A DNA stretch of 64,000 nt from Bacteroidales bacterium (GCA_018334675.1 JAGXLL010000011.1:51-64050), one strand, 5' to 3'; shown: positions 9,316 to 61,955, numbered from the stretch's first letter. The notes: generated from the letters alone by a model not told the origin. Numbers and translations: made by a program.

Positions 9316-9390
9316 CGGGATGTAGCTCAGTCCGGTTAGAGTACCCGTCTGGGGGGCGGGGGGTCGCGAGTTCAAATCTCGCCATCCCGA
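9316..9390 (+). tRNA. tRNA-Pro (anticodon GGG)
   Basis: Hand-folded cloverleaf. Acceptor CGGGATG/CATCCCG, D-arm GCTC..GAGT, anticodon stem CCCGT/GCGGG with loop CTGGGGG, T-arm GCGAG TTCAAAT CTCGC, discriminator A. No encoded CCA. Confidence 0.93.
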
Positions 9391-9985: not shown

Positions 9986-10714
9986 ATGGAAACACAATCG
10001 ATCAATAATGAGATAAATGCCAAAATAAACAAAATGCAGCCTGGTAAAGTGTTTGATTATTCCATTTTTAAAAATTACCAGGAAAAGCCACAGGCTGTAG
10101 CAAAAGCATTAAGCCGATTAGAAAAAAACAAAATTATTCAGAGGCTGGAAAAAGGAATTTATTATATCCCTTTACAGTCAAAATATGGAATATTGAAGCC
10201 TTCTGAAGAAAAAATAATAAATGCCTTAAAACAGAAAGAAAAAGGGATTTATGAAACAGGGCTTAATGTTTACAACAGGTTGGGTTTAACCTCACAGGTT
10301 CCCAATAGTATAACTCTGGCCACAAAGATCCAAAAGCCTCCAAAAAATGTTGGGGGGATTAAAATCCAATATACCAAAAAGGACTTTGATATCAGCCGAT
10401 ATGAATCTTACTCACTTCAATTGCTTGATGCCCTCAAAGACTGTAAAAACATTCCCGACAATACCCCGAATGGCGTGATTCGTGTCATGCGATCCAGAAT
10501 TAAGGAATTATCCGTGCAAAAGGTAAAACAATTAATTAAAGCTTCGTTTAATTATCCTCCTTTTGTAAGGGCTATCCTGGGCGCTATGATAGAACTGGAA
10601 TTTTCCGGGAAGGAATCAGCAGTCCTGAAAGAATCATTAAATCCATTAACCAAATATGCGATTCCGGTAAAATCGTTAACTTTACCTAATAAAGCAAAAT
10701 GGGGCATTAAATGA
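9986..10714 (+). CDS. AbiEi-like antitoxin / DUF6088-family transcriptional regulator
   Basis: 242 aa. N-terminal winged-helix pattern VAKALSRLEKNKIIQRLEKGIYYIP and NRLGLTSQVP. ATGA 4-nt overlap with the downstream AbiEii-like ORF. Low-GC context. Confidence 0.7.
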   Translation: METQSINNEINAKINKMQPGKVFDYSIFKNYQEKPQAVAKALSRLEKNKIIQRLEKGIYYIPLQSKYGILKPSEEKIINALKQKEKGIYETGLNVYNRLGLTSQVPNSITLATKIQKPPKNVGGIKIQYTKKDFDISRYESYSLQLLDALKDCKNIPDNTPNGVIRVMRSRIKELSVQKVKQLIKASFNYPPFVRAILGAMIELEFSGKESAVLKESLNPLTKYAIPVKSLTLPNKAKWGIK

Positions 10715-11094
10715 CGTTTCACGAAAATAAAAAAGAATTTAAGGAAGCTATCCTAGCTGCAGGAGAATATTTTGGCATTCGGGAAGTATTAATTGAAAAG
10801 GATTATTGGGTATCCTTTGTACTCAAAAACCTTTCTCAATCAGAATATAAAGATTGGGTAGTATTTAAAGGAGGAACAGCCTTGGCAAAATCATATACCT
10901 TCATTGCCAGGTTCTCCGAAGATATTGATTTAGCATTAATTTCTAAAGAAAAACTTGGAGATGCTAAAAGAAAGACTTTATTCAAAAATATTGAAAATAC
11001 CTTATCCACTGGTCTGGAACCAGTCAATCATCCTGATCCTTTAAAAAAAGGCAGAAACAGAAAAACTTTTGTCTTGTATTCGGCTTTCCTATGA
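10711..11094 (+). pseudogene. AbiEii/AbiGii-family nucleotidyltransferase toxin, 3'-truncated
   Basis: N-terminal signature FKGGTALAKSYTFIARFSEDIDLAL. Only 127 aa remain, which is less than half the family length as I recall it. The reading frame runs into the remnant of a convergent MFS gene. Confidence 0.75.
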
Positions 11095-11755
11095 AGGTTG
11101 CAAAGCTGAGGACAAAAAGCATGACGGCTCTCCGGTTAAGAACCGTTTTCAATACATGGTTGAGATAACTGGTCAAACCAGGTTTTGTTACTGGTTCGGG
11201 ATTATCCAGATAGAAATAAACCAGCAAAGCCACCACCAGTGCCAGTGCAGGAATCAGGAAAGGATAATACCAACTGATGGAAGCCAGCAATCCTCCAGCA
11301 GCAGGAAACAGGGCCATTGAAACACTCATCACACCGCTGTTATAACCCATGACCCGTACTTTCTGATTTCCCCCATAAATGTCACCGATAAGGGTGATGT
11401 TGACAATACCCAGGCAGGCAGCTCCCATTCCCTGAAAGAAACGAAGCACGAGGATCATATCGAACGACCTGAGAAAAAAACACGCTGTACCGCATACCCC
11501 AAATAAAACCAAAGCCACCAACAAAACCTTCTTCCTGCCCCAACGGTCGATAATCATCCCTAAGAATGGGGCCAGCAGAGCCCCGGGCAGGGTAAAAACG
11601 GTGATCAATAAACCAATCTTACTCTCAGAAATATTCAGCTCTTCACTTATTTCCGCCAAAATGGGAATGATGCTGGGTACTCCCGCCAGAGAAAGCAAGG
11701 TGACCGACAAAATAAGATATAAGTTCCTCTTCTGGCGTAAATTCAAAGGGACCAT
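11024..11755 (-). pseudogene. MFS transporter, N-terminal half only (3'-truncated)
   Basis: About six TM segments with the MFS loop motif MIIDRWGRKKVL. Hydrophobic sequence ends at ...VLSFATFI and becomes non-membrane junk (GKPNTRQKFF...) where it meets the AbiEii remnant. Confidence 0.7.
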
Positions 11756-22799: not shown

Positions 22800-23322
22800 T
22801 TAAAGGTGAAACGTAAATGAAAGATACGCTTTTTTTATAAAAATCTCCCACCCAGCTGAATTTTTCCATCTATTTTTGCAATATGTTATGAAGCACCTTT
22901 GAATGGGACCTTGACGGATATTTTTTGTCTTCCGGCTCCACAATGCAAAACACTCTGTGGTCATGGAGACGACAGGAAGTACGTCGATAGGGCGTTTCCA
23001 GACGATCAAGCCGGCGATCCAGAAAAAGAAGAATAAATCCATACATCACGGACCTATGATCCAGGTAGGTTTTTGAATCCCGAAGATTGAACATATAGGC
23101 CCTCAGCGCGGCAACGGCATTCATAGCGGCGCCCGACCAGGCATGCAACAGGCTGAAATGGAGGGTGAAGAATAACGTAGCAAATAGCTGGGCGATCAGA
23201 GTGAAGGAACGTTTGTCCTTCTGAAAGGAAATGACGATCCCCAGCAAACCCAGAAAACCAATAAACTGTATAAAGTAGGGATTCATGATTGAAGATTGTG
23301 ATACCCGGAAAAGATGGTTCAC
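22800..23322 (-). pseudogene. YgjV-family inner membrane protein gene interrupted by one frameshift
   Basis: The N-half is in one frame (MNPYFIQFIGFLGLLGIV... to VMYGFILLF). The C-half is in another frame (WIAGLIVWKRPIDVLPVVSMTTECFALWSRKTKNIR...NRWKNSAGWE). Both align by eye to E. coli YgjV. The switch falls at the A5/T5 run at 23021-23035. Confidence 0.6.
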
Positions 23323-23684
23323 AATAGGTTCTTTTTCCTTCCCTTTTTATGCAGTAAAATATCGGTATCTTCCACAGTAATCATACAGCCTGTTCGGATC
23401 TTATCGAAATAAGGCAGCAGGATCTTTTCCGAGAAATTCTCAATTTTTTCTGCCTCATCGATGATCTCCACGACCATGGGCAGTTTTTCCGAAACCTCCC
23501 AGAATTTGCGGGAATGGACCACATGGCTCGAGCCATACCCCATAGAGCCGTTCAGTACTGTTGCGCCTGCCATGTCATACCTTTTGGCGGCATACACAAT
23601 CATTTCATAGAGAGGACTATGACGGAACTTATCGGTGGAGCTGATAAATACCCGCAAAATCTTAGCTTTTCCCTGGGTTTGCAT
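23319..23684 (-). CDS. DUF190 (PII-like) protein commonly linked to crcB
   Basis: 121 aa. KILRVFISSTDKFRHSPLYEMIVYAAKRYDMAGATVLNGSMGYG pattern. Sits directly downstream of crcB. Confidence 0.8.
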   Translation of the reverse strand: MQTQGKAKILRVFISSTDKFRHSPLYEMIVYAAKRYDMAGATVLNGSMGYGSSHVVHSRKFWEVSEKLPMVVEIIDEAEKIENFSEKILLPYFDKIRTGCMITVEDTDILLHKKGRKKNLL

Positions 23685-23687
23685 AAT

Positions 23688-24074
23688 TCAGATCATTTTG
23701 GTGAGGTAGTTACCTAAAAATACAGCCATTATACCTATGAAGATACTCAATCCGGTGTAAAAAGCAAAATGAAAAAAATCGCCGTCGCGCAGCAAAGCCA
23801 CGTTCTCATTGATAAAAGTTGAAAAAGTGGTAAAGCTCCCGCAGAAACCAACAGTTAAAAACAACCGCCATTCCGGAGTTAACAGGTTTTCCTTAACTGA
23901 AAGCCCGTAAAGAAAACCAATGAAAAGACTTCCCATCATATTAACGATAAATGTGCCATAGGGAAAAGCGGACAGGGCCATGTTCTGAATGAGCCTGGAT
24001 AGTAAAAAACGCGAAACACTACCCAAAAACCCGCCGGTTCCGATGATCAATAACAGACGCCACATAAAATGCAC
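23688..24074 (-). CDS. crcB: Fluoride efflux channel CrcB
   Basis: 128 aa with 4 TM. GGFLGSVSRF and GFCGSFTTFSTF motifs. Confidence 0.92.
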   Translation of the reverse strand: MHFMWRLLLIIGTGGFLGSVSRFLLSRLIQNMALSAFPYGTFIVNMMGSLFIGFLYGLSVKENLLTPEWRLFLTVGFCGSFTTFSTFINENVALLRDGDFFHFAFYTGLSIFIGIMAVFLGNYLTKMI

Positions 24075-24098
24075 TTTCGTTGATTACGTATAAAACAT

Positions 24099-24148
24099 GC
24101 AGGAGTCATCAGCATTTAAGGCAGTTAAAGGTGAACCCCATCACCTGA
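24099..24148 (-). promoter_or_regulatory. Fluoride riboswitch (crcB RNA motif)
   Basis: The minus strand reads AGGUGAUGGGGUUCACCUUUAACUGCCUUAAAUGCUGAUGACUCCUGC. This gives P1 AGGUG/CACCU, a conserved GAUGGnGUUC core, an AAC linker and CUGAUGACUCC pseudoknot partner. It lies ~25 nt upstream of the crcB start. Confidence 0.85.
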
Positions 24149-24412
24149 GGCTCAAAAATAGTAAAAACCAGCGAGAATCAAACCTTGATTGCCCCGGATG
24201 TTTTTCGTACCTGCATCATGAAAACAGGTTCTTCCGGCAAATGTGTAGGTGAAATGTGAAAATAAACTGGAAGTCACAGGTCCGGGAGCTTCCCCTCCAT
24301 CCATAGACCCTGGCGTAAATTTACAACCGCCCACAGGAAATTTCTGGATGAAAAGATTGACATCTCAGGTATTCTTTGATAACTTAATGCTGCGACATAA
24401 AAACCGAGAATT

Positions 24413-29322: not shown

Positions 29323-29419
29323 ATTATGAAACCCACATGCACGATCTTACACAACAAGGACATGATTAAGCATGGGGGTTACATATGACCATAATAAATA
29401 AAAAGATAATCATATGAAA
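29323..29419 (+). promoter_or_regulatory. Conserved leader element copy A, containing a 20-codon uORF (29326-29388) and a hairpin over the main start codon
   Basis: 97 nt nearly identical to 55226-55322. The uORF encodes MKPTCTILHNKDMIKHGGYI. CATATGA (29382-29388) and TCATATG (29410-29416) form an inverted repeat that includes the uORF stop and the main ATG. Confidence 0.6.
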
Positions 29420-32400
29420 CATCAGCATGTTGTAGGCTATCGATTCCTTCTGCTCCTTGTATGGGCTATTTTTAGTGTATTAAAAACAAATGCTCAGGAT
29501 AACCCGGTAAGCATATCGGTACAGGTCATTCCTCCTTATTCGCCTTATTTTTCAGATTATATTGGCGAGAGCGGGAATATTACTTCCGAGTACAATGACT
29601 TGATCATGGTCACCCTCCAAAACACCGATATGAGCAACAGTTATCAGTTAAAGCTCATACCAACAATTTCATCCAACACGAATGTTTCAGTGGAAGTTCA
29701 GCCCGGCTTCACTCCCACCCGTCCGATCAGCCTGGCACCAGGAGAGACGAGGGTCCTCAACATGTCTGATTTAAAAGGCTATAATTCCAACCTCAACAAC
29801 AACCACATAGCCTATTCAGGGGTAAGCTACAACGAACTGGTGCAAACCGGGGTTCTACCTGAAGGCAATTATACGGTATGTATACAGGCCTATGACTATA
29901 ACACCTCCACACCTTTATCAAACAGTGAGCCGGGAGGCTGCAGCGCCGGCTTCTTGGTCTCTCATCCTGATCCACCGCAAATCACCTTTCCCGTGAACGG
30001 GTCGGAGATACTGGCGGGGGATCCACAAAACCTTCAGTTCAGCTGGACACCCCCGGCCGGCGGATCCGGTAATTATCAATACAACGTGCGTATTGTGGAG
30101 TTATCCGGCACCCAGCTGGATCCGTATTTCGTGATGAACAACAGCAACTATGCCTTTTACAGGGAGCAGGGTTTGATGGTACCTTCCCTGTTATATGACA
30201 TGAGCAAACCCACCCTGGAGCCTGGTAATACTTATGCTGTAAGGGTAACGGCCAATGATCCGCAGAGCCAGACGATGATCAAGAACCAGGGTCAGAGCGA
30301 GATACATGTATTCCGTGTACAGCAGGACACCGCTTTGTTGGCCGACACCACCTCCGAAGAGACAGCAGAGGAACAGCCAGCTTTTGCTTGCGGGGGAGAT
30401 TGTGATTTTGACCTCTCGGGCGTTGACCGCACGCCGGTTACCACTTTCCAAACCGGCGACATCATAAAAGTGGGCCATTATGAGGTACAGATCACAGGCG
30501 GCAACTGGTCGGGCGATCAGCTTACGGGAGAAGGAAAGATCCTGGCCACCGACTACATCCCTGTGGCTGTGAATGCCGATCTGATCAACCTGCAAATCAA
30601 TTCAAACGGCCGTGCCTTCAATGGCAAGGTGCAAGCTCAAGCCGGCAACACCAACCTTTTCAATCAAAGCATGCTTTCCGACATGGCCGGTCAGATCAAC
30701 CTCCCTCAAACGGATCCTTCCATCCTGTTCAACCAACTGAGTGATCCGGGCAGGCTACTGGCCAATCTTCAAAATGAAGCCACCATGGATCTGCCGTTGG
30801 GTATTGGGGCACCCGGCGACTACTATACGGTGGCTCTGGTGGGCATGGTGCTCAAACCTGAGAAAGCTACCATCAACACAGCCGCTATGATGGCGGCACC
30901 CGAAGAACAAAATAAATACCTGGCTTTTGGCGCCAAGAATGTGTGCATCAATCCCTCCGGTCTGGCAGCTTCTGATTCGATCCAAATGTCGCTGTTGGAG
31001 GATGTGAACATTCGGTTCTCCGATGATGTAAGCATGAAGCTTTCCACAACAGCCGGCAACGCCAGCACCTATGCAACAGCAGGATGTGAAGGCTTTGGCC
31101 GGGTATATGCTCAGGGCGATCTGATCATGTCGCCGGAAGTAATACGATATGAGAATCCTGATGGAACACAAAACACCCAGGATACGGTTAAGCTCAGCTT
31201 TGCCACCTCGTTTTCAGACTGGTCCGATTGGTTGATCGCCGCCAACCTCTTCGATGAGAACCGGCGCTATCAGTTCCCCGAGATGGAAGATTACAGCTTC
31301 CGGATTCAGCAAATGGTGCTGGATCACAGCGACCTGCGCAACGACCCCTCCCTGGTATTCCCCGACCAATATGCCTCGGCCGACCGCAATGCAACATGGA
31401 AAGGTCTGTACATCAAAGCCTTTAATATGATGATGCCCCGTTTCATCGACAAGAACGATGATCAACGCATCGAACTAACCGGTCGCAACATTCTGATCGA
31501 TCAGCATGGGGTTTCCACTTTCATCGAAGCCAACAACGTGCTTACTCAAAATGAAGGCAGACTGGGCGACTGGGCCTTCTCCATGGACTATCTGGCACTG
31601 GAGTTGGTAGCCAGCAGGCTGGACTCGGCCTCTATGAAAGGAGAGCTGCTGATGCCAATCTCCGATTCCAGCTTCAGCTATACCACTCATATGAGTTACC
31701 TCAACAGCCGGCTGGACTATGATTTCAATTTGGTTACCGCCGACGTGATCAATGTGCCCATGTGGTATGCGCAAATGGACCTGTATGAATCTTCCAGGCT
31801 GGATCTGACGATCAACACCAACAATGAGGTGACGATCCAGGCCATCCTCAACGGAAAACTTACCCTGGACAGTGAAGTCGGCGATTTCGACCAGGTGAAG
31901 ATCGGCGGTCTGGAGTTTGAGCAACTGGTCCTTCGCAATAAACCCCAATATATCAGAATGGACGGGGCCATGGCATTGGATGCCTCGGCCTCACCATCCC
32001 TGATGGGCTTTGGACTGAATCTGGGAGGCAACGGATCGGGATCCAACTCCGAATCCGGGGCTCTAAACGGTAGCCTGGACATTGGCCTGGATGAAGTGAG
32101 TTCCCGACGCACAGCCCTTTTCATGGATATGGGAATAAACTTCACCGGAAAGGGGGAGAGCAATTCGCTCTCAGGCAATACACGAATCAGCCTCGAAGCC
32201 CGCTATAATCCTCAACAGGTGAAATGGGAAAACGCCTCGGCTTCCATCGAACAAATTGAACTCGATGCCAACATGGGGATTATGGACATCTATGGGATGA
32301 TCCGGTTCTTTAAGGACAACCCGGTCTATGGAAAAGGTTTCCAGGGTACGCTTAACAGCCGGTTCTTAGAAACCATCAACGTGGATGTGAATGGACTGTT

Positions 32401-35356
32401 CGGTTCGGTAGACGACTACCGCTACTTCTATGTAGACGGCAAAGCCTCTTTTGGAGTCGGCGGCCTGGGTTTCTTCGGCCTCGGCATGTATGGCTTCGGC
32501 GGAGGTCTGGCCTACAATATGGAAAATACGTCCCTGCCCACTACCGACGACATCGCCCAAAACACATCAGGCGTACAGTCCGATTATGAACCCAAAGAAG
32601 GATCCTTGGCACTGAAGGCCACAGTAATGATGGGCCTCCAGGGTGATCCTAAGCCCTGGAACTCCGATGTGACCTTTGAAGTAGGATGGAACAATCAAAG
32701 CGGGCTGACCCGAATCGATATCGGTGGCGACTCCTATTTCATGCAGGAGCTGGCCGACCGGTCCAACCCCAAATTCAAAGGGACCCTGGACATGACCTAC
32801 AACTTTAACCAACAGCGGTTCATGGCAGCCGCCCAGACCGACATCCGTATACCTGCGCAGGATCCCAACATAACAGGAAATATGCCGGCCAACTTCCTGT
32901 TCGATTTTCAGCGGGGAGGAGGCCTGAGTGAGTGGTACATCAAATTTGGCGAACCCAGCGACCGCATCATCACCCATGTTGCCATCACCGAGGATATCTC
33001 CTTCACCAACGGCTCCTATTTCATGACCGGCTCGAACATTCCGGGCATGCCGCCTCCGCCACCCGCTATACTCCAGGAACTCGACATCAGCCAATCCAGT
33101 CAGCTGGCCCGACCCAATAACCATGCCATTGAAGCGGGAGCAGGTTTTGCCCACGGCCTCAAACTCGACTTCGAGCTGAACGAGATGGATGCAGTGATCT
33201 GCAACATCGACGCCCGTCTGATAGCTGGCTATGATATATCTGTCATGGACTGGTCGAGAGAAGGCATCCTGTGCAACGGCCGTTCAGAGTTTGGCGTGAA
33301 TGACTGGTATGCCAAAGGCCAGCTCTACTTCCTGGCCAGCGCACATTTCTATGGCAAAGGACCGAAGGAGATGACCTATTTCAGAACCTCGCTGGCCGCA
33401 CTGGCACAAGGAGGGCTGCCCAATCCCACCGGTGTGCGCGGCAAGGTACAGGCTACCTTCGACGTGGGCTGGAAAACCTGGAAACCTTCCAAAGAATTCT
33501 ACATCGGAGAGATATGTGAGATGTCCATTCCGGAAGATGCCGAGCCGGATATCGAAAATCCATACCAGGACGCCCAGTTCATCTCCAGGGTGAGCCCCGA
33601 CCAGGGAGGGGACAATATATCACCTATTGTAGTCCCTGAAGTCGAATTCAACTACCCGGTGGAAAAAATCAAAAATTTCACTTTCCCGGATGGAATGGGC
33701 GGAACAGTCAGCAAAACCTATAAGATCGGGTATGATCTCTACATCCGCGAAAACGGTTCTTCCAACCGCATCGACCTGAGCTCGGCTCCTTCCGGCAACA
33801 ACAGAGAACTGGAGATCACCATGAACGAACAATTGAAGCCGGAAACGGCCTATGAGATCGCAGCGGAAGCCACCCTCCTTCAAAAATCCGGGAACAACTG
33901 GAATGAAGTACGTGAAGGCAACCGCATCGTTCACGAGAAAGTCTCCAACACTTTCATAACCGGTAAGAAAGAGAAATTCAGTGACATCGATATAGCAGAA
34001 ATGACGCCGGTGAAACGGCAACGATACTTTAAAAAAGGAGACCATCCACAGGGATTGATCCGTTTCCGCACGAACATGGATGGATTCTTCAATCAGTATT
34101 CCGGTAAGCAGATTCAGGTGAAGTTCACTTCCCTCGATGAATCCGACGAGCATGTGGTGGATGCCAGCCTCTACAGCGACCGGCTCACATACCCCATGCC
34201 CGATCTGAATAAGGAAACCATCTACAGCGTTAAGATCCTTGCAGTAGACAGGGAGGAAGAAAGTTCAACATCTTCCGGCTATGGATGGTTCGGCAACAAC
34301 GGGTTTGCATTTTCTGTGCTGAACAATTCCGGCTCCAGCCAATCAGGTAGTTCGCAAAGCGGTTCCGGAAGCACCCAATCCGGAGGCTTCTCCACCGGCG
34401 TTCAAAGCACCCAATACAATTTTAACACCAACGCCACGGCCGCCGATGACCTGGAGCTGGACCCCACTGTTTTCGCTCCGGTGCTCTATGAATATCACTT
34501 CCGCACCAGTATGTTCAACACCCTGGGTGAGAAACTCAACAGCCTGCAGGATGCTGAAGTGTCCCTGGCCTATCAGAATGTGGGAGCTGAGACCGCTAAG
34601 AAGCTTACGATACGTCTTCAGGGCCCCGAGCGCTTTGAGGGATACCTCCAGAATCAAAACAATGAACTGGAATTTGAAGAGGTGACATATCGCCTCGAGC
34701 ACAACAACGGTGTAGAGGACGACTTTTTACCTGACTGGTACCTCAATAACGTGAATTATACTGTAAACAGCAGCCAATCCTGGACTGAAAAGGTTACCTA
34801 TCAGGTGCTCCGGCAAACAACCCCGTATGAAGCCTTTGGTCAGGACCCCTACCAGTTGAAAGGTTACTGGCAGGGAAGCGGCATATTGCCATCGTATTTT
34901 GACGGACCTCTTAGTGACCGCAACATCCAATACGGATGGGAACCCGACTACTCCAACTCCGGTAACTCCACGGGTTACGGATACCATACATCCTCCAACA
35001 CGCAGAACATCAATTTCAGTGCGAGCGGCACATTCGTGAATGCCAACGACCTGTCCCTGGGCAGCGATGCATATGACGCCTCCGAACTGACCACTGTGAT
35101 GGCTGTGGAAGTGACACTGGAACGTAAGATCCTGCGCGAATTCCAGAATGAAACGGTCCCGGCCGTGGAAGTGGCCAAACAATATGAAACAGGAGGTCCC
35201 GGTCAACCGGGTGGGGCACCTGGCACGAGTGGTGGCATGAGCACCACAGACCTGGAAAGCGCCCAATACCTATCCATGCCCAATGGCAATTACCAGATCC
35301 GGCTACGTATGACCGAAGGCAACACGTTAACTAAAACCGTCTACTTCAACTTTTAA
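29414..35356 (+). CDS. Giant (1980 aa) secreted beta-rich protein of unknown function
   Basis: Uninterrupted 5.9-kb ORF. Signal peptide ...VWAIFSVLKTNAQ, two N-terminal beta-sandwich-like modules, a Gly-zipper-like stretch, a PPPPP hinge and an S/G/Q linker. No catalytic motif recognised. Confidence 0.85.
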   Translation: MKHQHVVGYRFLLLLVWAIFSVLKTNAQDNPVSISVQVIPPYSPYFSDYIGESGNITSEYNDLIMVTLQNTDMSNSYQLKLIPTISSNTNVSVEVQPGFTPTRPISLAPGETRVLNMSDLKGYNSNLNNNHIAYSGVSYNELVQTGVLPEGNYTVCIQAYDYNTSTPLSNSEPGGCSAGFLVSHPDPPQITFPVNGSEILAGDPQNLQFSWTPPAGGSGNYQYNVRIVELSGTQLDPYFVMNNSNYAFYREQGLMVPSLLYDMSKPTLEPGNTYAVRVTANDPQSQTMIKNQGQSEIHVFRVQQDTALLADTTSEETAEEQPAFACGGDCDFDLSGVDRTPVTTFQTGDIIKVGHYEVQITGGNWSGDQLTGEGKILATDYIPVAVNADLINLQINSNGRAFNGKVQAQAGNTNLFNQSMLSDMAGQINLPQTDPSILFNQLSDPGRLLANLQNEATMDLPLGIGAPGDYYTVALVGMVLKPEKATINTAAMMAAPEEQNKYLAFGAKNVCINPSGLAASDSIQMSLLEDVNIRFSDDVSMKLSTTAGNASTYATAGCEGFGRVYAQGDLIMSPEVIRYENPDGTQNTQDTVKLSFATSFSDWSDWLIAANLFDENRRYQFPEMEDYSFRIQQMVLDHSDLRNDPSLVFPDQYASADRNATWKGLYIKAFNMMMPRFIDKNDDQRIELTGRNILIDQHGVSTFIEANNVLTQNEGRLGDWAFSMDYLALELVASRLDSASMKGELLMPISDSSFSYTTHMSYLNSRLDYDFNLVTADVINVPMWYAQMDLYESSRLDLTINTNNEVTIQAILNGKLTLDSEVGDFDQVKIGGLEFEQLVLRNKPQYIRMDGAMALDASASPSLMGFGLNLGGNGSGSNSESGALNGSLDIGLDEVSSRRTALFMDMGINFTGKGESNSLSGNTRISLEARYNPQQVKWENASASIEQIELDANMGIMDIYGMIRFFKDNPVYGKGFQGTLNSRFLETINVDVNGLFGSVDDYRYFYVDGKASFGVGGLGFFGLGMYGFGGGLAYNMENTSLPTTDDIAQNTSGVQSDYEPKEGSLALKATVMMGLQGDPKPWNSDVTFEVGWNNQSGLTRIDIGGDSYFMQELADRSNPKFKGTLDMTYNFNQQRFMAAAQTDIRIPAQDPNITGNMPANFLFDFQRGGGLSEWYIKFGEPSDRIITHVAITEDISFTNGSYFMTGSNIPGMPPPPPAILQELDISQSSQLARPNNHAIEAGAGFAHGLKLDFELNEMDAVICNIDARLIAGYDISVMDWSREGILCNGRSEFGVNDWYAKGQLYFLASAHFYGKGPKEMTYFRTSLAALAQGGLPNPTGVRGKVQATFDVGWKTWKPSKEFYIGEICEMSIPEDAEPDIENPYQDAQFISRVSPDQGGDNISPIVVPEVEFNYPVEKIKNFTFPDGMGGTVSKTYKIGYDLYIRENGSSNRIDLSSAPSGNNRELEITMNEQLKPETAYEIAAEATLLQKSGNNWNEVREGNRIVHEKVSNTFITGKKEKFSDIDIAEMTPVKRQRYFKKGDHPQGLIRFRTNMDGFFNQYSGKQIQVKFTSLDESDEHVVDASLYSDRLTYPMPDLNKETIYSVKILAVDREEESSTSSGYGWFGNNGFAFSVLNNSGSSQSGSSQSGSGSTQSGGFSTGVQSTQYNFNTNATAADDLELDPTVFAPVLYEYHFRTSMFNTLGEKLNSLQDAEVSLAYQNVGAETAKKLTIRLQGPERFEGYLQNQNNELEFEEVTYRLEHNNGVEDDFLPDWYLNNVNYTVNSSQSWTEKVTYQVLRQTTPYEAFGQDPYQLKGYWQGSGILPSYFDGPLSDRNIQYGWEPDYSNSGNSTGYGYHTSSNTQNINFSASGTFVNANDLSLGSDAYDASELTTVMAVEVTLERKILREFQNETVPAVEVAKQYETGGPGQPGGAPGTSGGMSTTDLESAQYLSMPNGNYQIRLRMTEGNTLTKTVYFNF

Positions 35357-39184: not shown

Positions 39185-39310
39185 AAATTGAAGTTAGAGT
39201 TGAAAAAAGTTGAAAGTTGAAAAGAAATTAAAGGTTGAAAAAAGTTGAACGTGGAAAAAAGTTGAAAGATTAACATTGAACATTCAATTCAACATCCTAA
39301 CATTCAACAT
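39185..39310. repeat. Opposed GTTGAA word arrays between convergent genes
   Basis: Six exact GTTGAA words on the + strand (39198-39266), then AACATTC/TTCAAC words (39270-39310), which read GAATGTT/GTTGAA on the - strand. Confidence 0.75.
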
Positions 39311-40603
39311 TTACATCTGTCCGATAAACCCTCCGGTAAGACGTGTGAGGTTGGTTCGTGAGTCGATCAGGTTGTATATCGAGCGCAGCCTTTGAAGGGC
39401 AGCATTGATATATATAAGTTGTATGTCCCGGTAATTAAAGGAGTTGATGGTTCCGTTGCGGAACTTCTCCTGGGCGATCTCCAGGTTGAGCTCGGCTGCC
39501 TCCAGATTCTCTTCAGCCACCTGCAACAGGTTGGTGCGCACATCATAGCGGTCGTATTCATTATAGAGCACATTGATCAGGCTGTGTTTGATCTCATCCG
39601 TCTCGGTTTGCGTGATCTCTTCATTGACTCTGGCCACCTCAACGGCACGTTTACGGGTACCGCCCGTATAGATGTCGTAGCTCAGGGTGAGGTTGGCAAA
39701 AGGCGATATGGATTCACGGGTAACCGGGTCGAGTCCTTCATTTTGGGTTCTCGACCATGAATTGTCGACCCCTGCTGAAAGTCTTAGCGAAGGATACAGG
39801 TCACTTTCCTGCAGCCTCACCTGGTCTTTCTGCAGCATCAGGTTGGCATATTGGTTCTGAAGGGTCTGGTTATTGGAAAGCATCTTATCCAACAAATCAC
39901 TGAGCTTGTAGGAAGAAGTATCTGCCTGGAAGGAGTCGGTGAAGTTCCACCGCTGATTGGGCTCTTCTCCAAGAACAAAATTCAGGTTGCGGATGGCGTT
40001 GCGCAGCACGACCTGCTGATTCAGATAGGCAGAGGAATCTTCAAGGTACACATTCTTGGCCTGAAGCACATCGTAGCTCAGTGCACTGCCCAGCTCCCGG
40101 CGCATCACCTCATAGCGGTAACGGTCGCCCGAGAGGCGCATCACCCGCTGAAGCACCTCGAGCTGTTCCTCTTGTAGGAGGACGTTATAATATCCCTGAA
40201 TGACATCCTGTATGGTGTTTTCCACTACCACGGCTGAACGGCCTTTGGCAAGGGTTTCCAGAGTATTCAGCCTGCTCTTGGTGACCTGAACCCGGTAACC
40301 ATCAAAAAGGGTCCAGTTCAGACCTATACCCCCGAAAAGGTTATTGGAGGAAGAATTGTTGAGGGCATCGAAGTTGTTGGAAGAGGTGGCATCGAAACCC
40401 ACCCTGGGATATCGCCCGGCGGTGCCCCAGTTGTTGTTGATCGAGGCAATCTCTTCCTGGGACTTGGAGATAATGATGCCGTAATTGTTGTCAAGTGCTT
40501 TTTCCAGGGCCGCTGAAAGTGTCAGGTTCTCCTGGGCCGGCAGGCCTGAAGCAAGCAGAAGCAATCCCGGGAGGGCTGCCGCATATTTTATGATTCGAAA
40601 CAT
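39311..40603 (-). CDS. TolC-family outer membrane efflux protein
   Basis: 430 aa. Signal peptide, LTLSAALEKALDNNYGI start and duplicated coiled-coil/barrel repeat pattern. Last gene of the RND operon. Confidence 0.88.
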   Translation of the reverse strand: MFRIIKYAAALPGLLLLASGLPAQENLTLSAALEKALDNNYGIIISKSQEEIASINNNWGTAGRYPRVGFDATSSNNFDALNNSSSNNLFGGIGLNWTLFDGYRVQVTKSRLNTLETLAKGRSAVVVENTIQDVIQGYYNVLLQEEQLEVLQRVMRLSGDRYRYEVMRRELGSALSYDVLQAKNVYLEDSSAYLNQQVVLRNAIRNLNFVLGEEPNQRWNFTDSFQADTSSYKLSDLLDKMLSNNQTLQNQYANLMLQKDQVRLQESDLYPSLRLSAGVDNSWSRTQNEGLDPVTRESISPFANLTLSYDIYTGGTRKRAVEVARVNEEITQTETDEIKHSLINVLYNEYDRYDVRTNLLQVAEENLEAAELNLEIAQEKFRNGTINSFNYRDIQLIYINAALQRLRSIYNLIDSRTNLTRLTGGFIGQM

Positions 40604-46150: not shown

Positions 46151-46428
46151 AGGGTGATTAGTGCAATTCCCCATGAATATCGGTCTACCCTAAGAAACAA
46201 TTGACAGGCTTTTTCTCTTTTCACTATTGCCTGGTGTCAATAAATATGCAGCCATCCACTCTCCTGTGATAGGATAAAAATTAAGCCAAACCAGGACAAA
46301 AAATTCATAAAATTTGACAGCTGCCTTTTGAATTCATATCTTAAGGGTTTTAAACAGATGGGTGGGATCTTCTTTGAATGCTCCAACCCATCTCTCTAAT
46401 ATGTTTAACCAAATCCAACATGTCGATT

Positions 46429-48678
46429 ATGAAAAAATTTTCAAACCGTTTCTTTGTGCCCCTTTTAATCGGGGTAGCTTTGTTATTTGTATGGACCTCC
46501 TGCGAAGATCAATCCTTCCGAAAACCGGAGGATTTGCAGCCTCAAATTTCTGAATCATCACCTGTTGCAGGTGAAGCGATAGAAGATCAATACATTGTTG
46601 TGCTGAAAAAAGGAGCACGGCCCTCCAAAGTCCTATCAGAACATGGTATGGAAGCTCAACATGTCTACCATCATGCCATCAATGGTTTCTCCTTAAATAT
46701 ACCGAACAATCGGGCATTAGAAGCCTTAGGAAACAATAAGAATGTAAAGTACATAGAAAAGGATTTAAAAGTGAAAGCGTTCGCCCAAACACTGCCCACC
46801 GGTGTGGATCGAATACAGGCCGACCTGAACAGTACCGCTGCCATTGACAATACCCACCAGGAGCTCGATGTGGATATTGTTATCCTGGATACGGGTATTG
46901 ATGATGATCATCCGGACCTGAATGTAGCAGGTGGATATAATTTCTCCCGTGGACCCTCCAGCAAGTGGGATGATGGCAACGGGCACGGCACCCACACAGC
47001 CGGAAGTGCAGCTGCCATGGACAACTCGGAAGGGGTTGTCGGAGTGGCGCCGGGTGCCCGCCTCTGGGCAGCCAAAGTACTGGACAACAGAGGAAGCGGT
47101 TCCATTTCCGATATCATTGCCGGCATCGATTGGGTCACCCAGAATGCCGACAAATTTGAAGTAGCCAATATGAGCCTGGGGGCTACCGGCTCAAGCAGCT
47201 CCATGCGGGAAGCCATTCAGAGCAGTGTCAGCGCAGGAGTGGTATACGTAGTAGCTGCCGGGAATGATGGTTCCGACGTATATGGAAGCGACGGCCAGCT
47301 GGGAGGCGATGATGACATCATTCCGGCAGCCTATCCTGAAGTGGCTACCATCTCCGCTCTGGCTGACTCTGATGGCCAGGCAGGCGGTTCGGGAAGTGAA
47401 ACCAGCTATGGCAGCGATGACTCTTTTGCCAGCTTCAGCAATTACAGCACTGCAGTGACCACCGACAATCCCGTCAGCTCTCCAGGCGCAGCTATAGATC
47501 TGATGCTGCCAGGGGTGGACATCTACTCCACCTACAAAGGAGGTGGTTATTCCACCATGAGTGGAACAAGCATGTCTTCACCTCATGGAGCGGGTTTGGC
47601 TGCTTTGTACATTGTCGCTAACAATTCCAGCCATGCCTCTGCTTCAGATGTATACAACATCCGACAGGCCTTGATTGACGCTGGTGTTGAGCAATCCAGC
47701 GAATACGGGCTGGCTACCCAGAATGACCCGGATGACAACCCCGAACACCTGGGTTGGGCCAGCAGCAGTAGCAGCGGCGCTCCCTCGGTTTCCTGGGTCA
47801 ATCCCCTCGATGGTGAAACTGTTTCCGGAACCGTTACCCTGGAAGTCAACGCATCCGATGCCGACGGTTCCGTCGGCCAGGTTGAATTTTTCGTAGACGG
47901 AAGCCTCGTCGGAACCGACAGCGATGGGTCCGATGGCTGGACAACCAGCTGGACCACAGGAACCGATGGTGAATACACCCTGAAAGCTGTTGCTACTGAT
48001 AATGATAACAATACAGGTGATGCCAGCATCACTGTTACAGTAGACAACACCGACGATGCCCCCACGGTTTCCTGGGTCAATCCCACCGAGGGTGAGACCG
48101 TCAGCGGCACAGTCACCATGGAAGCCGATGCCTCGGACGATGGATCGGTGACCCAGGTGGAATTTTTCGTAGACGGAAATCCCGTAGGGACCGACAGCGA
48201 TGGTTCCGATGGCTGGACCAACAGCTGGGATTCCAACAATGTAGCCGACGGTGACCATACTTTTACTGCTGAGGCAACCGATGATGCCTCGCAGACCTCA
48301 TCCGCACAGATTAACGTGACGGTAAGCAACACCACCAGCGGAGGCGGCATGTTTGTCTCGGACATCAGCTTCAGGTCATTTGGCCCGCATCTGGGTGCCA
48401 CCGTTACCATCCGTTACGACTCTGATGGAGATGGCGTGGCCGAATCCTCCGATGACCCGGTCAGCAACGCTTCAGTCAGTCTGACATTGGATTACGAAGA
48501 TGGCACTACAGTCAACAACTACTCCGGAACAACGGATTCTGCCGGTCAGATCGAATTTAAGTGGAAACAAGCCCCAAGTGGTTCTTATGAGGCAGAAGTA
48601 ACCGAGCTCACACATACCTCGTATACATGGGATCCTTCCCTGGACCTGGATAATCCGGATTCATATACATTGCAATAA
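46429..48678 (+). CDS. S8-family subtilisin-like serine peptidase lipoprotein with I9 propeptide and tandem Ig-like C-terminal repeats
   Basis: Lipobox LLFVWTSC. Catalytic Asp ILDTGID, His GHGTHTAG and Ser SGTSMSSPH. Two ~93-aa repeats (47779-48057, 48058-48333). Confidence 0.9.
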   Translation: MKKFSNRFFVPLLIGVALLFVWTSCEDQSFRKPEDLQPQISESSPVAGEAIEDQYIVVLKKGARPSKVLSEHGMEAQHVYHHAINGFSLNIPNNRALEALGNNKNVKYIEKDLKVKAFAQTLPTGVDRIQADLNSTAAIDNTHQELDVDIVILDTGIDDDHPDLNVAGGYNFSRGPSSKWDDGNGHGTHTAGSAAAMDNSEGVVGVAPGARLWAAKVLDNRGSGSISDIIAGIDWVTQNADKFEVANMSLGATGSSSSMREAIQSSVSAGVVYVVAAGNDGSDVYGSDGQLGGDDDIIPAAYPEVATISALADSDGQAGGSGSETSYGSDDSFASFSNYSTAVTTDNPVSSPGAAIDLMLPGVDIYSTYKGGGYSTMSGTSMSSPHGAGLAALYIVANNSSHASASDVYNIRQALIDAGVEQSSEYGLATQNDPDDNPEHLGWASSSSSGAPSVSWVNPLDGETVSGTVTLEVNASDADGSVGQVEFFVDGSLVGTDSDGSDGWTTSWTTGTDGEYTLKAVATDNDNNTGDASITVTVDNTDDAPTVSWVNPTEGETVSGTVTMEADASDDGSVTQVEFFVDGNPVGTDSDGSDGWTNSWDSNNVADGDHTFTAEATDDASQTSSAQINVTVSNTTSGGGMFVSDISFRSFGPHLGATVTIRYDSDGDGVAESSDDPVSNASVSLTLDYEDGTTVNNYSGTTDSAGQIEFKWKQAPSGSYEAEVTELTHTSYTWDPSLDLDNPDSYTLQ

Positions 48679-53786: not shown

Positions 53787-54707
53787 TCATCGCAGCACCT
53801 TGCGTTGCTTCATATCATACCGCTGGCCTTTATGAAGGAAGTAGAACTGCTCCTGCCCTTCGGAAAGCTGATATACAGTATCCCGCTCAGCGGACCAGCG
53901 TGTGCCGTCGTAGATGGCCACATAATGCTCTCCTACAACCCGGAAAGTATCTTTTTCAACCACGATCCCGGTGTTCTCATCGAGTCCGATTCCCAGCAGC
54001 CCGGGTCTTTCCCGGAGCACTTCAAACATGTCGAAATGGCGGTTTCGGGCCAGAAGATGCTGATCCACCGCAATATTCTCAATGAAAGACAACCCTTTCT
54101 CATGATCTCCCATCATAATGGTGTTGCTTCGGGTGTCCCCCCGCACCAGGTACGACCCCTGAATAGTTGCTCCTGCTGATGAACCGGCTATCACACCCCC
54201 GCGGTCAAGCAAACGTTCTAATTCTCTATGAACCCTGGTATGAAGATAGGAATCGCTCAACCGCCATTGCCTTCCCCCCATAAACCATACCCCTGGGGCG
54301 TCTCTTATTGGCTGAACAAAAGCCTCACTGTTCGCTTCTTCCCGGTCGCGGGTATGCAGAATATGTACCTCCGTGAAACCATACCCGGCGAAACGTTCTT
54401 TCTGGCGTTTCATAAAATGATCATCCTGCATGCCTGCATCGCTGCGCGCTGTTGGAATGATTACCACCGGCTCCCCCGGCCCTCCCACCAGCTCTTGAAA
54501 CATGGGAAGAAACAGGCTGTCGCTGGCGTTACCACCGATTAGCAATAAGGTTCCCCGCTCCGGTCCACGGGTTACCGGCCTTCCTTCTACAAGCCCCTGA
54601 TGTTCAGGCTGTACACCTTCAAAACTTTGACTCAGAGCTGGATAAATATTAAGCACAAGAGAAATTGTAAAGATCCATGTGCCTGTAATAAAAATCTTTC
54701 GCATCAT
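53787..54707 (-). CDS. S51-family peptidase (cyanophycinase-like, type 1 glutamine amidotransferase-like fold), secreted
   Basis: 306 aa. Signal peptide, LLLIGGNASD and nucleophile context IAGSSAGATIQG. Confidence 0.8.
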   Translation of the reverse strand: MMRKIFITGTWIFTISLVLNIYPALSQSFEGVQPEHQGLVEGRPVTRGPERGTLLLIGGNASDSLFLPMFQELVGGPGEPVVIIPTARSDAGMQDDHFMKRQKERFAGYGFTEVHILHTRDREEANSEAFVQPIRDAPGVWFMGGRQWRLSDSYLHTRVHRELERLLDRGGVIAGSSAGATIQGSYLVRGDTRSNTIMMGDHEKGLSFIENIAVDQHLLARNRHFDMFEVLRERPGLLGIGLDENTGIVVEKDTFRVVGEHYVAIYDGTRWSAERDTVYQLSEGQEQFYFLHKGQRYDMKQRKVLR

Positions 54708-55225
54708 ATGGAAATTCGTCTGTTTATTGTTTGATTTTCAAAGGTCAGATGGAACTTACCATTTGTAAATAACCAGGTTTGTGAGGAAGATATTGATTAT
54801 TTTCTCATGGACGTTTCATTTTTATATCTTATCAAGTGCCAAATCCCGGATGCATTAGTCAATCACTCTATAAACTGCAAGGGTGAGGGGTACCGATATC
54901 CGGGTCCTTACAAAAGTAGAAAAAATTCCCTGAACAAAAGGTTTGCTCATATATTAAGATCCTCGAATCAAGAATCCGATGAGGGAAAAACTTCGCCTGT
55001 ACCCACAACCCGGGTTGCTATTCATTATGTTTTCAGGATCTATCAACCTCCATCCCCCTTTTATAATGCCATAGAACTCGATGTCTATCAGCTACATATC
55101 ATAATTCCAGACTTCAAGGTACACTATTTAGACTCATTCAATATAATAGATTCGTTTTTATTCCATTCACGGATTTTTTTAATTTTATGCATTTGCTCGG
55201 AATTTGAACAGACGCAAAATCTGAT

Positions 55226-55322
55226 ATTATGAAACCCCCATCCAGTAATCTACACAACAAGGACATGTTTAAGCATGGGGGTTACATATGACCGTAATAA
55301 ATAAAAAGATAATCATATGAAA
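55226..55322 (+). promoter_or_regulatory. Conserved leader element copy B, containing a 20-codon uORF (55229-55291) and a hairpin over the main start codon
   Basis: Near-identical to 29323-29419. The uORF encodes MKPPSSNLHNKDMFKHGGYI. Perfect 9-bp stem AACCCCCAT/ATGGGGGTT and the CATATGA/TCATATG inverted repeat. Confidence 0.6.
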
Positions 55323-56237
55323 AGAAGAGACTTCATTAAAAAGAGTATAGGTGCGGGATTATTCACCGGATCCCTGCTTTCCATGGGTAGTTATGGTAAG
55401 GTTTTCGCCAACACGGTGAACAACAGCGCAGCCAATTATGATCTGGTGGCTATTAAAGGAGGCGAACCGGACAAGATGTTCGAAAAGGCAATGGAGGCCA
55501 TGGGTGGCATGAGCAAATATGTCAAACCCGGGCAGAAGGTAGTTGTCAAACCCAATATCGGATGGGATGTGGTTCCTGAAAAAGCGGCCAACACCAACCC
55601 CAAGCTGGTAAGTGCCATCATAAAGCAATGCTATGAGGCGGGTGCATCAAAAGTTTATGTATTTGATCATACCTGTGATGAATGGAGGAAGACTTACAAC
55701 AACAGCGGCATTGAGAGAGCGGCCAAAGATGCCGGGGCAACGGTAGCACCCGGGCATACCGAAAGCTATTACCAACCGGTAAGTATACCCCAGGGCAAAA
55801 CCCTCAAGGAAGCCAAAGAACATGAACTGATCCTGGAATCCGATGTCTTCATCAATGTGCCCATATTGAAGGATCACAACTCTGCCCGCATGACGATCGC
55901 CATGAAGAACCTGATGGGTGTTATCTGGGACCGCAGTTTCTGGCACCGCAACGGGCTGCACCAGTGTATCGCCGATTTTGCTTCCTATCGCCAGCCTGAC
56001 CTCAACATTGTGGATGCCTATCGGGTGATGCTCAGAAACGGGCCCAGAGGCGTTTCTGTCAATGACGTCACCACGATGAAGTATCAAATCATATCGGACG
56101 ACATTGTTGCTGCAGATGCTTCTTCTGCCAAGATATTCGGCTCCGACGAGCGGGTACCCCATATCAAGATGGGCGATGAGATGGGCTATGGCCAGGCCGA
56201 CCTGTCCAAGCTAAATATTGGAAGATTAAAGATGTGA
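55317..56237 (+). CDS. Tat-exported DUF362 domain protein
   Basis: 306 aa. Twin-arginine signal MKRRDFIKKSIGAGLF. DUF362-like core (VVVKPNIGW ... INVPILKDHN). Confidence 0.85.
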   Translation: MKRRDFIKKSIGAGLFTGSLLSMGSYGKVFANTVNNSAANYDLVAIKGGEPDKMFEKAMEAMGGMSKYVKPGQKVVVKPNIGWDVVPEKAANTNPKLVSAIIKQCYEAGASKVYVFDHTCDEWRKTYNNSGIERAAKDAGATVAPGHTESYYQPVSIPQGKTLKEAKEHELILESDVFINVPILKDHNSARMTIAMKNLMGVIWDRSFWHRNGLHQCIADFASYRQPDLNIVDAYRVMLRNGPRGVSVNDVTTMKYQIISDDIVAADASSAKIFGSDERVPHIKMGDEMGYGQADLSKLNIGRLKM

Positions 56238-57879: not shown

Positions 57880-58290
57880 TCACTCCGTGCCTTCTTCTTC
57901 CAAATACCGGCTCAAGACCGAAAAAATCCGGCTTTTCCTTACCGGTTTGGAGATATAATCATTGCATCCGGCTTCCAGGCTGATCTCGCGGTCATCCGAC
58001 ATCGCATAAGCCGTTAGGGCTACAATAGGAATATCGTTATTAAAGGTGCGAATCTTTCGGGTGGCCTCCAAACCATCCATCTCGGGCATCTTGATATCCA
58101 TCAGGATAAGATCGATACCCGGATGATCTTCCAGCAGTTGTATAACCTCCTGCCCGTTGCGGGCCCGGTGTATCTCGATCTGTGTCTGCCTTAACACGAT
58201 CTGCAGATACTTGAAGTTGCTGTCTTCATCCTCAGCGATCAATAAGCTGTAATCTTGCCAGTTTTTCTGCCCTTCGTCGTTTTGATTCAT
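57880..58290 (-). CDS. Stand-alone response regulator receiver (CheY-like, no output domain)
   Basis: 136 aa. LIAEDEDSN, phospho-acceptor LILMDIKMPEMDG and conserved Lys in YISKP. Confidence 0.88.
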   Translation of the reverse strand: MNQNDEGQKNWQDYSLLIAEDEDSNFKYLQIVLRQTQIEIHRARNGQEVIQLLEDHPGIDLILMDIKMPEMDGLEATRKIRTFNNDIPIVALTAYAMSDDREISLEAGCNDYISKPVRKSRIFSVLSRYLEEEGTE

Positions 58291-61200: not shown

Positions 61201-61955
61201 TATTCCACATCAGGGCTTTCAAGAGGTTCTGCGCGCATACGCTCCATATCAAGGACATAAAAACGGTCGCGGGCAGTAAAAAGAAACCGGCTACCTTCCA
61301 GGTGTGTAATGGTTTCCACTCCGGTAACAAACTGCCATCCATTCATCACCTGTTGCAGGGTATCGGAATCGACCCGGAATAAACCCTTCTCCCCGGCCAA
61401 AAAATAATAATGACCCCGGTATATAAATGTAGCTTCAATATTCAAATCGCCGGTCTTTTCAAAAACCTGATAAACTTTCATATGGGCTCCGTCATAGCGG
61501 AATATGCTCTTATAAGTGTGAAAAAAAACATCCCCATTAAGCAGGTTTATGTTCCAGATCTCATAAAAAGGCTGATGTTCGGAAGGAATAAGATGGGTTA
61601 AGGAAACAAAGCGCAGCTTTCCGTTTTCATCGGGACGGAGATAGCCAATCTCGCCGTATGAACCTACATAAACCCTTCCCTGGCTGTCAACAGCTAATGA
61701 CCGTGCAGTGGTCTTTCCCGGGAGCTCGATTAAATCCCACGATATCCCGTCAAATTCAAGGACGCCGTTCACATTGCCAAAATACATTATACCCCGGTGA
61801 TCTTGCACTATATCCCAGGTTTGCGGATGCTGATTGTAGATCTGCGGAGGATAATTGGTCATAAAAGGGGTCCCCATATATTCCGGCAATTGCGCTGTGC
61901 CTGTATATACGGAAGTCAAAAGGAAAATCCCCACAAAAATTACCGCCCTGATCAT
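58296..61955 (-). CDS. Sensor histidine kinase with periplasmic two-component-regulator propeller + Y_Y_Y domains, PAS and coiled coil
   Basis: Propeller repeats, TM, PAS, H-box [17 protein letters not shown]-box and G-boxes ([14 protein letters not shown]). ATG at 61955 ([13 protein letters not shown]...) is preferred over 62000. Confidence 0.88.

Follow-up and report, generated by a model that had tools for sequence, protein, structure and literature searches.

Two segments of the 64,000-nt stretch of Bacteroidales DNA analysed here (the window), at 29323-29419 and 55226-55322, are nearly identical, and each runs into the start codon of a different gene. The question raised by this locus is what such a repeat does there: whether it is a conserved regulatory leader of two operons, as the original prediction proposed, or a sequence that has moved into both places. 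Comparison with related metagenome contigs argues for the latter. The two segments, copies A and B, are very probably small non-autonomous mobile repeats without terminal inverted repeats, which target ATGAA in an uncultured Bacteroidales lineage.

Copies of the repeat in the window

Copies A and B align without gaps at 88 of 97 positions, which bears out the nine mismatches counted in the original prediction. Seven of these lie, as it had noted, in one patch (repeat positions 13-25, 29335-29347), and the remaining two are at 29365 and 29391. The module is also discrete, with no larger duplication around it, the 100-nt flanks on each side being only 27-29% identical. A 42-nt core has exactly two occurrences in the window, and 100 shuffles gave an expectation of 0. 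The final ATG of copy A (29414) opens a 1980-aa ORF (29414-35356, +) for a secreted protein with a signal peptide and without a significant Pfam domain. Relatives of this protein in a collection of 5.8 billion proteins are distant, with at most 38% identity over the N-terminal 500 aa, and a 684-aa fn3-containing protein comes after it. The final ATG of copy B (55317) opens 55317-56237, encoding a Tat-signal DUF362 protein, with a poly-ferredoxin gene next.

The 20-codon ATG...TGA upstream reading frame (uORF1) described earlier is present in both copies, as MKPTCTILHNKDMIKHGGYI and MKPPSSNLHNKDMFKHGGYI, and in copy A it starts at the gene's original ATGAAA. Three further parts had been missed. 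A second frame, uORF2, overlaps the uORF1 stop with its ATG and the main ATG with its TGA, so that two ATGA overlaps in copies A and B link uORF1 to uORF2 and uORF2 to the main ORF. There are also two stems, AAACCnCAT/ATGGGGGTT and CATATGA/TCATATG, of which the second contains the main start codon. Folding into both stems was significant with either parameter set, with z = -4.1 (A) and -1.6 (B) as RNA, and z = -4.0 (A) and -2.3 (B) as DNA. The features of the four copies found in the window are as follows.

29326-29419 (+): copy A, full 88-nt unit plus regenerated ATGAAA; covariance model 101 bits, E 7e-18
55229-55322 (+): copy B, subtype as copy A; covariance model 105 bits, E 2e-18
29326-29388 in A, 55229-55291 in B (+): uORF1, 20 codons plus TGA
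29385-29417 in A (MTIINKKIII), 55288-55320 in B (MTVINKKIII) (+): uORF2, 10 codons, by direct reading
29330-29338 in A (AACCCACAT), 55233-55241 in B (+): stem 1 5' arm, pairing with the 3' arm
29372-29380 in A (ATGGGGGTT), 55275-55283 in B (+): stem 1 3' arm, from fold, covariation and RNAalifold
29350-29368 in A, 55253-55271 in B (+): near-invariant loop core CACAACAAGGACATGATTA, from column entropy
29382-29388 in A, 55285-55291 in B (+): stem 2 5' arm CATATGA, including the uORF1 stop and the uORF2 start
29410-29416 in A, 55313-55319 in B (+): stem 2 3' arm TCATATG, including the main-ORF start codon
62855-62964 (+): copy C; nhmmer E 8.5e-7, covariance model 47 bits, E 5e-7
54705-54819 (-): copy D, decayed, copy-C subtype; covariance model 25 bits, E 0.013, borderline

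The older copy C and the decayed copy D were not part of the original prediction. Copy C differs in subtype from A and B (GTGAAACGTCCATGAC...GTCATGG...CACAAG...CTTGTGAAA) and belongs to the ACGTCCATGAC subtype, which is also present in metagenome contigs L029 and L034. It is flanked by GTGAAA at both ends and its stem 2 is CACAAG/CTTGTG, so that the change of ATG to GTG at both junctions is matched by an internal change of CAT to CAC. Both stems are retained through compensatory changes, with a strong DNA fold (z = -4.7), and the copy precedes, by a few tens of bases, a MutS2-like reading frame with a provisional start. Copy D, read by eye as ATGAAACGTCCATGAG...ATGGTAAGTTCCAT...CCATATG, ends at the ATG (54707-54705) of an S51 peptidase gene (53787-54707); its structure is lost (fold z = 0.16, not significant). 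All four units in the window face a gene start. A 141-aa ORF at 54807-55232 (+), without a Pfam match, spans the intergenic region, enters copy B and overlaps copy D antisense; it is almost certainly not a gene.

Family members, subtypes and conserved structure

A core-pattern scan of JGI metagenomes yielded 26 further contigs from two datasets, all the extra copies coming from a few metagenomes and from short-read assemblies, where repeat arrays can be mis-assembled. A profile (nhmmer) gave 66 matches in these 26 contigs and the window. The matches form 38 arrays, the longest with five units, in which units recur every 88-92 nt, and a covariance model gave the same picture with 53 hits. Among 185,579 GTDB species-representative genomes there were 0 hits with a 21-mer and a 23-base degenerate core, so a family with that core is in no representative genome. 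A scan of IMG/VR for the core also returned 0 hits, and blastn against plasmid and phage collections gave no match. Contig L034 is syntenic with 49.5-54.2 kb of the window at ~74% nucleotide identity, which indicates that the contigs with units come from relatives of the window's organism. Judged by the names on homologous proteins, the host lineage is uncultured Bacteroidales, the one lineage to which the family is limited so far.

Units are 88-92 nt long, with variants of 104-137 nt. Stem 1 defines several subtypes, namely CCCCCAT/ATGGGGG, CCTGCAT/ATGCAGG, CCCTCAT/ATGAGGG and CTTTCATGAT/ATCATGGAAG, together with a longer subtype, ACGTCCATGAC/GTCATGG, and a further one consisting of 133-137-nt variants with an extra module. 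Neighbours within an array are of different subtypes and have a mean identity of 0.779, against 0.787 for random pairs. Since neighbours are no closer than random pairs, the arrays are best read as growing by repeated insertion at the ATGAA junction, and local tandem duplication was rejected as their origin on the same comparison.

In the long variants (L011 7720-7867, L020 2275-2410, L021 2652-2785, L026 4971-5107, L029 865-1001 and L034 ~1000-1207), the tail after stem 1 is swapped for either of two modules, both ending TTTATACGA before the next ATGAAA. One module has its own GAGGGTT/AACCCTC hairpin and TTTG...AATTTTATAC, resembling the native promoter box of the DUF362 operon, and the 135-137-nt variants might carry a promoter. 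No promoter was seen in the standard unit, which has no visible TTTG...TAnnTTTG pair.

An alignment of 43 distinct units was used for the analysis of stems and uORFs. Stem 1 has the general form AAACCnnCAT / ATGnnGGTT and encloses a 33-nt loop, and stem 2, with the gene's start codon included, has the form CATnnG / CnnATG and a loop of ~28 nt; the two differ in sequence. Pairing is found in 85.5% of stem cells, and shifting the 3' partners by 1-3 columns lowers this to 38% or less. For covariation the score is 0.177 (0.105 +/- 0.009 in shuffles), and both sides have changed in 55 cells (33 +/- 6 in shuffles), a number reached in 0 of 500 shuffles. For example, stem 1 pair 9-52 is CG in 21 units, UA in 16 and UG in 4, and pair 10-51 is GC in 16, CG in 14, UA in 2 and UG in 2. 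For stem 2, pair 62-94 is CG in 14, AU in 12 and UA in 5, and pair 61-95 is AU in 36 and GC in 3. Stem 1 was recovered independently by RNAalifold. Alternatively, stem 1 could be extended by the CAT of stem 2, which is complementary to the left-hand ATG as well. Mismatches within the stems are G.T in 16 cases versus A.C in 10, which gives no pointer to RNA or single-stranded DNA as the relevant form.

The loop core, ACACAACAAGGAsATGrTTA, is more conserved than the stems, with an entropy near 0 in every codon position outside alignment columns 36 and 40. The variable patch noted between copies A and B corresponds to the most variable part of the family, the inner 5' arm of stem 1 and the 5' loop. 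No terminal inverted repeats were found, the left end reading ATGAAACC... or CCCCCAT... and the right end ...ATAACCGT. The tail of the unit is A-rich with stop codons, and has A at -6, -12 and -13 and C at -3 relative to the regenerated ATG. Initiation in Flavobacterium johnsoniae is favored by A at -3, -6, -12 and -13 and by low secondary structure, and in Bacteroidetes AUG is depleted near start codons, where structure and nearby AUGs strongly influence initiation (PMC6847099). By analogy with these initiation rules, and given the AUG depletion, the extra AUGs within the unit are likely used.

Placement at start codons and empty sites

Of the 34 arrays followed by a called ORF on the 3' side, 32 point towards the start of a gene in the same orientation, and no array at all lies inside an ORF. 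For approximately 21 of the 38 arrays, the final ATG of the last unit itself opens an ORF of at least 80 aa. When eight downstream proteins were scanned, several Pfam domains began within the first few residues, which identifies the final ATGs as genuine start codons. The downstream genes are unrelated to each other: pheT lies behind two units, purA behind three and an aromatic amino-acid lyase gene behind five, and others encode DPP-IV, a methylglyoxal synthase-like protein, an M48 peptidase, an NAD-epimerase and an OmpA-family protein.

The junctions define a short shared sequence. Left junctions are nearly always ATGAAA, and the sixth base of the right junction varies (AAA, AAC, AAT) in step with the second codon of the gene, often differing between left and right; this variation suggests that the shared target is ATGAA. 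ATGAA(A) in these genomes is mostly the start codon of a gene followed by a Lys or Asn codon. As far as the junctions go, the ATGAA(A) flanks would fit equally well a 5-6 bp target duplication or insertion 3' of a fixed target. By eye, the internal CATnnG 'guide' has no match to the left flank beyond ATG.

The DUF362 protein downstream of copy B has many close metagenome relatives on contigs with conserved gene order, which allowed us to compare the same start codon with and without a unit.

L036, 97% protein identity to the window: site empty
L001-L003, 96% protein identity to the window: site empty
L006-L009, 86% protein identity to the window: site empty
L037, 84% protein identity to the window: site filled
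L004, 83% protein identity to the window: site filled

The empty orthologous loci read ...ATTATGAAAAGAAG... at the start, and the covariance model of the element has no match in them. For L001-L003 the start is ...AAATCTGAAATTATGAAAAGAAGAGAC..., in the fuller context ...AAAATCTGAAATTATGAAAAGAAGAGAC.... The window site reads ...AAAATCTGATATTATGAAA, then 88 nt ending ...ATCATATGAAA, then AGAAGAGAC.... The orthologous loci without a unit identify copy B as an insertion. More generally, the unit is, as judged from these alignments, an insertion made in a single orientation at ATGAA(A). For copy A no orthologous empty site was found, the relatives of the 1980-aa protein being only at most 38% identical.

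The units in L004 and L037 are of other subtypes, with a different stem-1 sequence and a longer tail, and the uORF of the L004 unit is in another frame (MTPIKKPTQQGDD). The nearest relative of copy B is copy A, at 90% identity; to these units at its own site copy B is only 77-80% identical. Copy B being closer to copy A than to the same-site units, the same start codon appears to have been hit more than once, most likely through independent insertions.

A motif, ACTATTTAGACTCAtTcAATATAA (~55120-55150), stands ahead of the DUF362-ferredoxin operon, with a TAnnTTTA-like box ~40-60 nt downstream of it. Both are kept in all orthologous loci (L001, L004, L006, L037), with or without the repeat. They are candidates for an operator and a promoter, which may belong with the neighbouring response regulator (57880-58290) and Y_Y_Y hybrid sensor kinase (58296-61955).

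Possible explanations and comparison with known repeats

The reading that we favor, a mobile repeat inserting at ATGAA, would account for the layout of the units. Insertion leaves ATGAA(A) on both sides. The gene keeps an intact start codon at the 3' end of the element, and the start codon that it had before now opens a short uORF in the new 5' UTR. Each inserted unit recreates the target, and later insertions then pile up as tandem arrays of mixed subtypes. After insertion the unit would be transcribed from the gene's own promoter; this transcription start is suggested, for copy B, by the conserved TAnnTTTA-like box upstream of it. Bacteroidetes do without Shine-Dalgarno sites, and translation of the gene could proceed either by direct initiation on the A-rich tail or by termination-reinitiation after the uORF(s), a route that the two ATGA overlaps in A and B would fit. 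Either way of initiating would explain how a gene stays expressed even behind 3-5 units, and why units are tolerated before essential genes.

The conserved stems and the loop core may be recognition features for an enzyme supplied in trans. Neither the window ORFs, scanned against Pfam, nor the 37 fetched loci contained an autonomous partner or transposase, and no transposase beside partial copies, or ORF between stem 1 and the tail, was found; L035, L013 and L023 carry ordinary genes. Since no enzyme was seen in the window or beside any copy, we infer mobility only from insertion polymorphism and comparative data. Single-strand HUH/Y1 transposition (IS200/IS605-like, 'peel and paste') is the most likely mechanism, which we propose tentatively: the units are small, carry hairpins, have no terminal inverted repeats, and insert strand-specifically at a fixed short target. 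The ends of IS200/IS605 elements are short-looped hairpins, unlike the 33-nt loop of stem 1, and this counts against it, as do the failure to find a Y1 enzyme in the window or beside any copy and the possibility of a strict 5-6 bp target duplication.

A further and rather unlikely reading is an undescribed tiny hairpin mobile element that homes to start codons. With its complementarity to the ATG or GTG of both junctions, the internal CAY adjoining stem 1 would help to select the start-codon target in the manner of guide-target pairing. The uORF(s) and the A-rich tail would then form a built-in translational relay that keeps essential genes expressed.

The possible explanations that do not invoke mobility of this kind are less probable. 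Recent gene conversion or chance duplication in one strain would agree with A and B being mutually closest (90%), and the original prediction had itself raised the case of an element confined to these two sites in one strain. Its probability is close to nil, with ~66 related units of several subtypes in 28 other contigs from at least four independent datasets, and two older copies (C and D) within the window itself. An exapted structured 5'-UTR element, whose stems act in mRNA and set the translation of many genes, has more in its favor and is nonetheless improbable. Stem 2 might mask the AUG or the 5' end might be stabilised, and an RNA-binding factor might bind the loop. Compensatory changes occur in both stems, one of which holds the start codon, the loop core is conserved more than the stems, and old copy C keeps both stems with coordinated CAT to CAC and ATG to GTG changes. 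Units are tolerated before pheT and purA, and initiation in Bacteroidetes is strongly influenced by structure and nearby AUGs (PMC6847099). However, G.U-compatible mismatches are not in excess over A.C, the covariation could come from source copies selected for mobility, and the structure is gone in copy D. That near-identical strains may have or lack the unit also speaks against its being essential at a particular gene. Integron attC or tyrosine-recombinase core sites, or a classical MITE moved by a DDE transposase, are highly improbable. The imperfect palindrome, with AAC...GTT closing the base of stem 1, and the arrays of unlike units sharing a core recall the former, and the flanking direct repeat ATGAA could be a target duplication, but the junctions between empty and filled sites are in ATGAAA and not at the stem GTT. 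The copies are scattered over many loci, not gathered in one array by an integrase, there are no terminal inverted repeats, and no integrase or transposase is nearby. For attC in particular, the cores match only at AAC/GTT, which together with the junctions and the dispersal led us to reject it.

A regulatory leader peptide or attenuator, in which the 20-codon uORF senses a condition and controls the downstream operons, would agree with the uORF being open for 20-28 codons from the first ATG in most units, ending 4-27 nt before the next ATG. The ATGA chain of uORF1, uORF2 and the main ATG in A and B, and the position of the main ATG in stem 2, would also suit it. It is nevertheless very unlikely, and the idea of a conserved regulatory leader of two operons does not hold: the element is absent at the closest orthologous loci, and dozens of copies and mixed arrays stand before functionally unrelated genes, housekeeping genes among them. 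The uORF peptide, moreover, is not conserved beyond its nucleotides. The peptide differs by subtype, a 1-nt indel giving another C-terminal half, and the ATGACCCCC variants encode a wholly different one. Early stops occur in 5 of the 43 units, the ATG is lost in 5 and the frame reads through in 2; variability at the three codon positions is 0.43, 0.32 and 0.54, with no clear third-position excess. No terminator-like structure comes after the unit, and scans for sigma-70 promoters and intrinsic terminators gave nothing above shuffled expectation, the sigma-70 model being unsuited to Bacteroidetes promoters. A riboswitch is not indicated either, as the element matches no Rfam family and the downstream genes are unrelated. 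The Rfam search gave no hit at the gathering threshold and only noise up to E = 10, consistent with the earlier statement that no described Bacteroidota leader peptide or riboswitch with this sequence was known.

Taken as mobile repeats, the units appear to constitute a family of small non-autonomous intergenic repeats for which we found no earlier description. In the literature on start-codon-targeting repeats we found only analogues in Neisseria (REP2) and Borrelia, and by function and layout the closest analogue is REP2, along with Borrelia IR-A/IR-B. REP2 and the Borrelia plasmid repeats IR-A/IR-B are small intergenic repeats that lack terminal inverted repeats, contain two internal stem-loops, lie directly upstream of unrelated ORFs, supply a 5' UTR and a fused ATG, and are present in tens of copies per genome (PMC3184786, Delihas 2011). 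REP2 is 120-150 bp, proteobacterial, and carries a promoter and a Shine-Dalgarno site (PMC3184786). Much like REP2, the present units have no terminal inverted repeats, have two internal stem-loops, are placed upstream of ORFs and supply the ATG. They differ from REP2, as it is described, in phylum and size, and they begin with ATGAAA (the uORF), stack in mixed arrays, and have empty and filled sites that display start-codon insertion.

The resemblance to IS200/IS605 PATEs and to REP/REPIN-RAYT systems lies in the lack of terminal inverted repeats, in the hairpins and in strand-specific insertion by a fixed short sequence, and units of this size could move by single-strand 'peel and paste'. 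REPs measure 20-40 nt and are mostly found at the 3' ends of genes. Compared with PATEs, the present stems are long-looped (33 and ~28 nt) and unlike in sequence. Neither a Y1 transposase nor a RAYT turned up in the 64-kb window. To our knowledge, an ATGAA target that reappears at the 3' end of the element has not been described for IS200/IS605-derived or REP families.

With classical MITEs (Correia, Nezha, Chunjie) the units share being short, non-coding, multicopy and polymorphic between relatives, and MITEs are likewise co-transcribed with neighbour genes and able to fold (PMC10969869). The present element differs in being without terminal inverted repeats, in having a flanking repeat that is always about ATGAA(A), where MITEs have target duplications of variable sequence, and in its strict start-codon placement and orientation; a review of prokaryotic MITEs leaves start-codon placement unmentioned (PMC10969869). 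Rickettsia palindromic elements (RPE) are also small and ORF-bearing, with insertion compatible with host-gene expression. RPEs, however, insert in frame within coding regions and add peptide, whereas the present units precede the start codon and end their own ORF.

If the mobile-repeat reading is true, a selfish repeat can occupy the most sensitive positions of a gene without killing it. It would do so by copying or duplicating the start codon, terminating its own frame and offering an A-rich initiation region, which suits a phylum that ignores Shine-Dalgarno sequences. The family would allow uORFs, reinitiation and start-codon masking to be studied in a natural Bacteroidetes system, and would point to an enzyme with a 5-6 nt target coinciding with gene starts. 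In practice, such units would break contigs in metagenome assemblies of this lineage, give rise to spurious small ORFs and pass falsely for 'conserved leaders'.

Several other features of the window were annotated. A fluoride riboswitch (Rfam RF01734, 54.7 bits) at 24093-24154 (-) lies directly upstream of crcB (23688-24065, -) and DUF190 (23319-23684, -), an ordinary, well-known arrangement. A tRNA gene (9316-9390, +) comes before a DUF6088 (AbiEi-like) ORF and a truncated AbiEii toxin ORF of 127 aa, matching profile positions 3-69 of 238 (region 9986-11755), with a 243-aa MFS fragment on the opposite strand nearby; the region may be the remnant of a tRNA-integrated island. At 39199-39285, a run of 17-18-nt direct repeats (GTTGAAAAAAGTTGAAAG...) occupies the intergenic space between an ORF ending at 39178 (+) and a TolC-like OEP gene (39311-40603, -). 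Finally, two pairs of 80-91-nt direct repeats, 76-84% identical and spaced by 276-279 nt, are found at 47779-48228 inside a 766-aa ORF (46378-48678), and these look like tandem protein-domain repeats.
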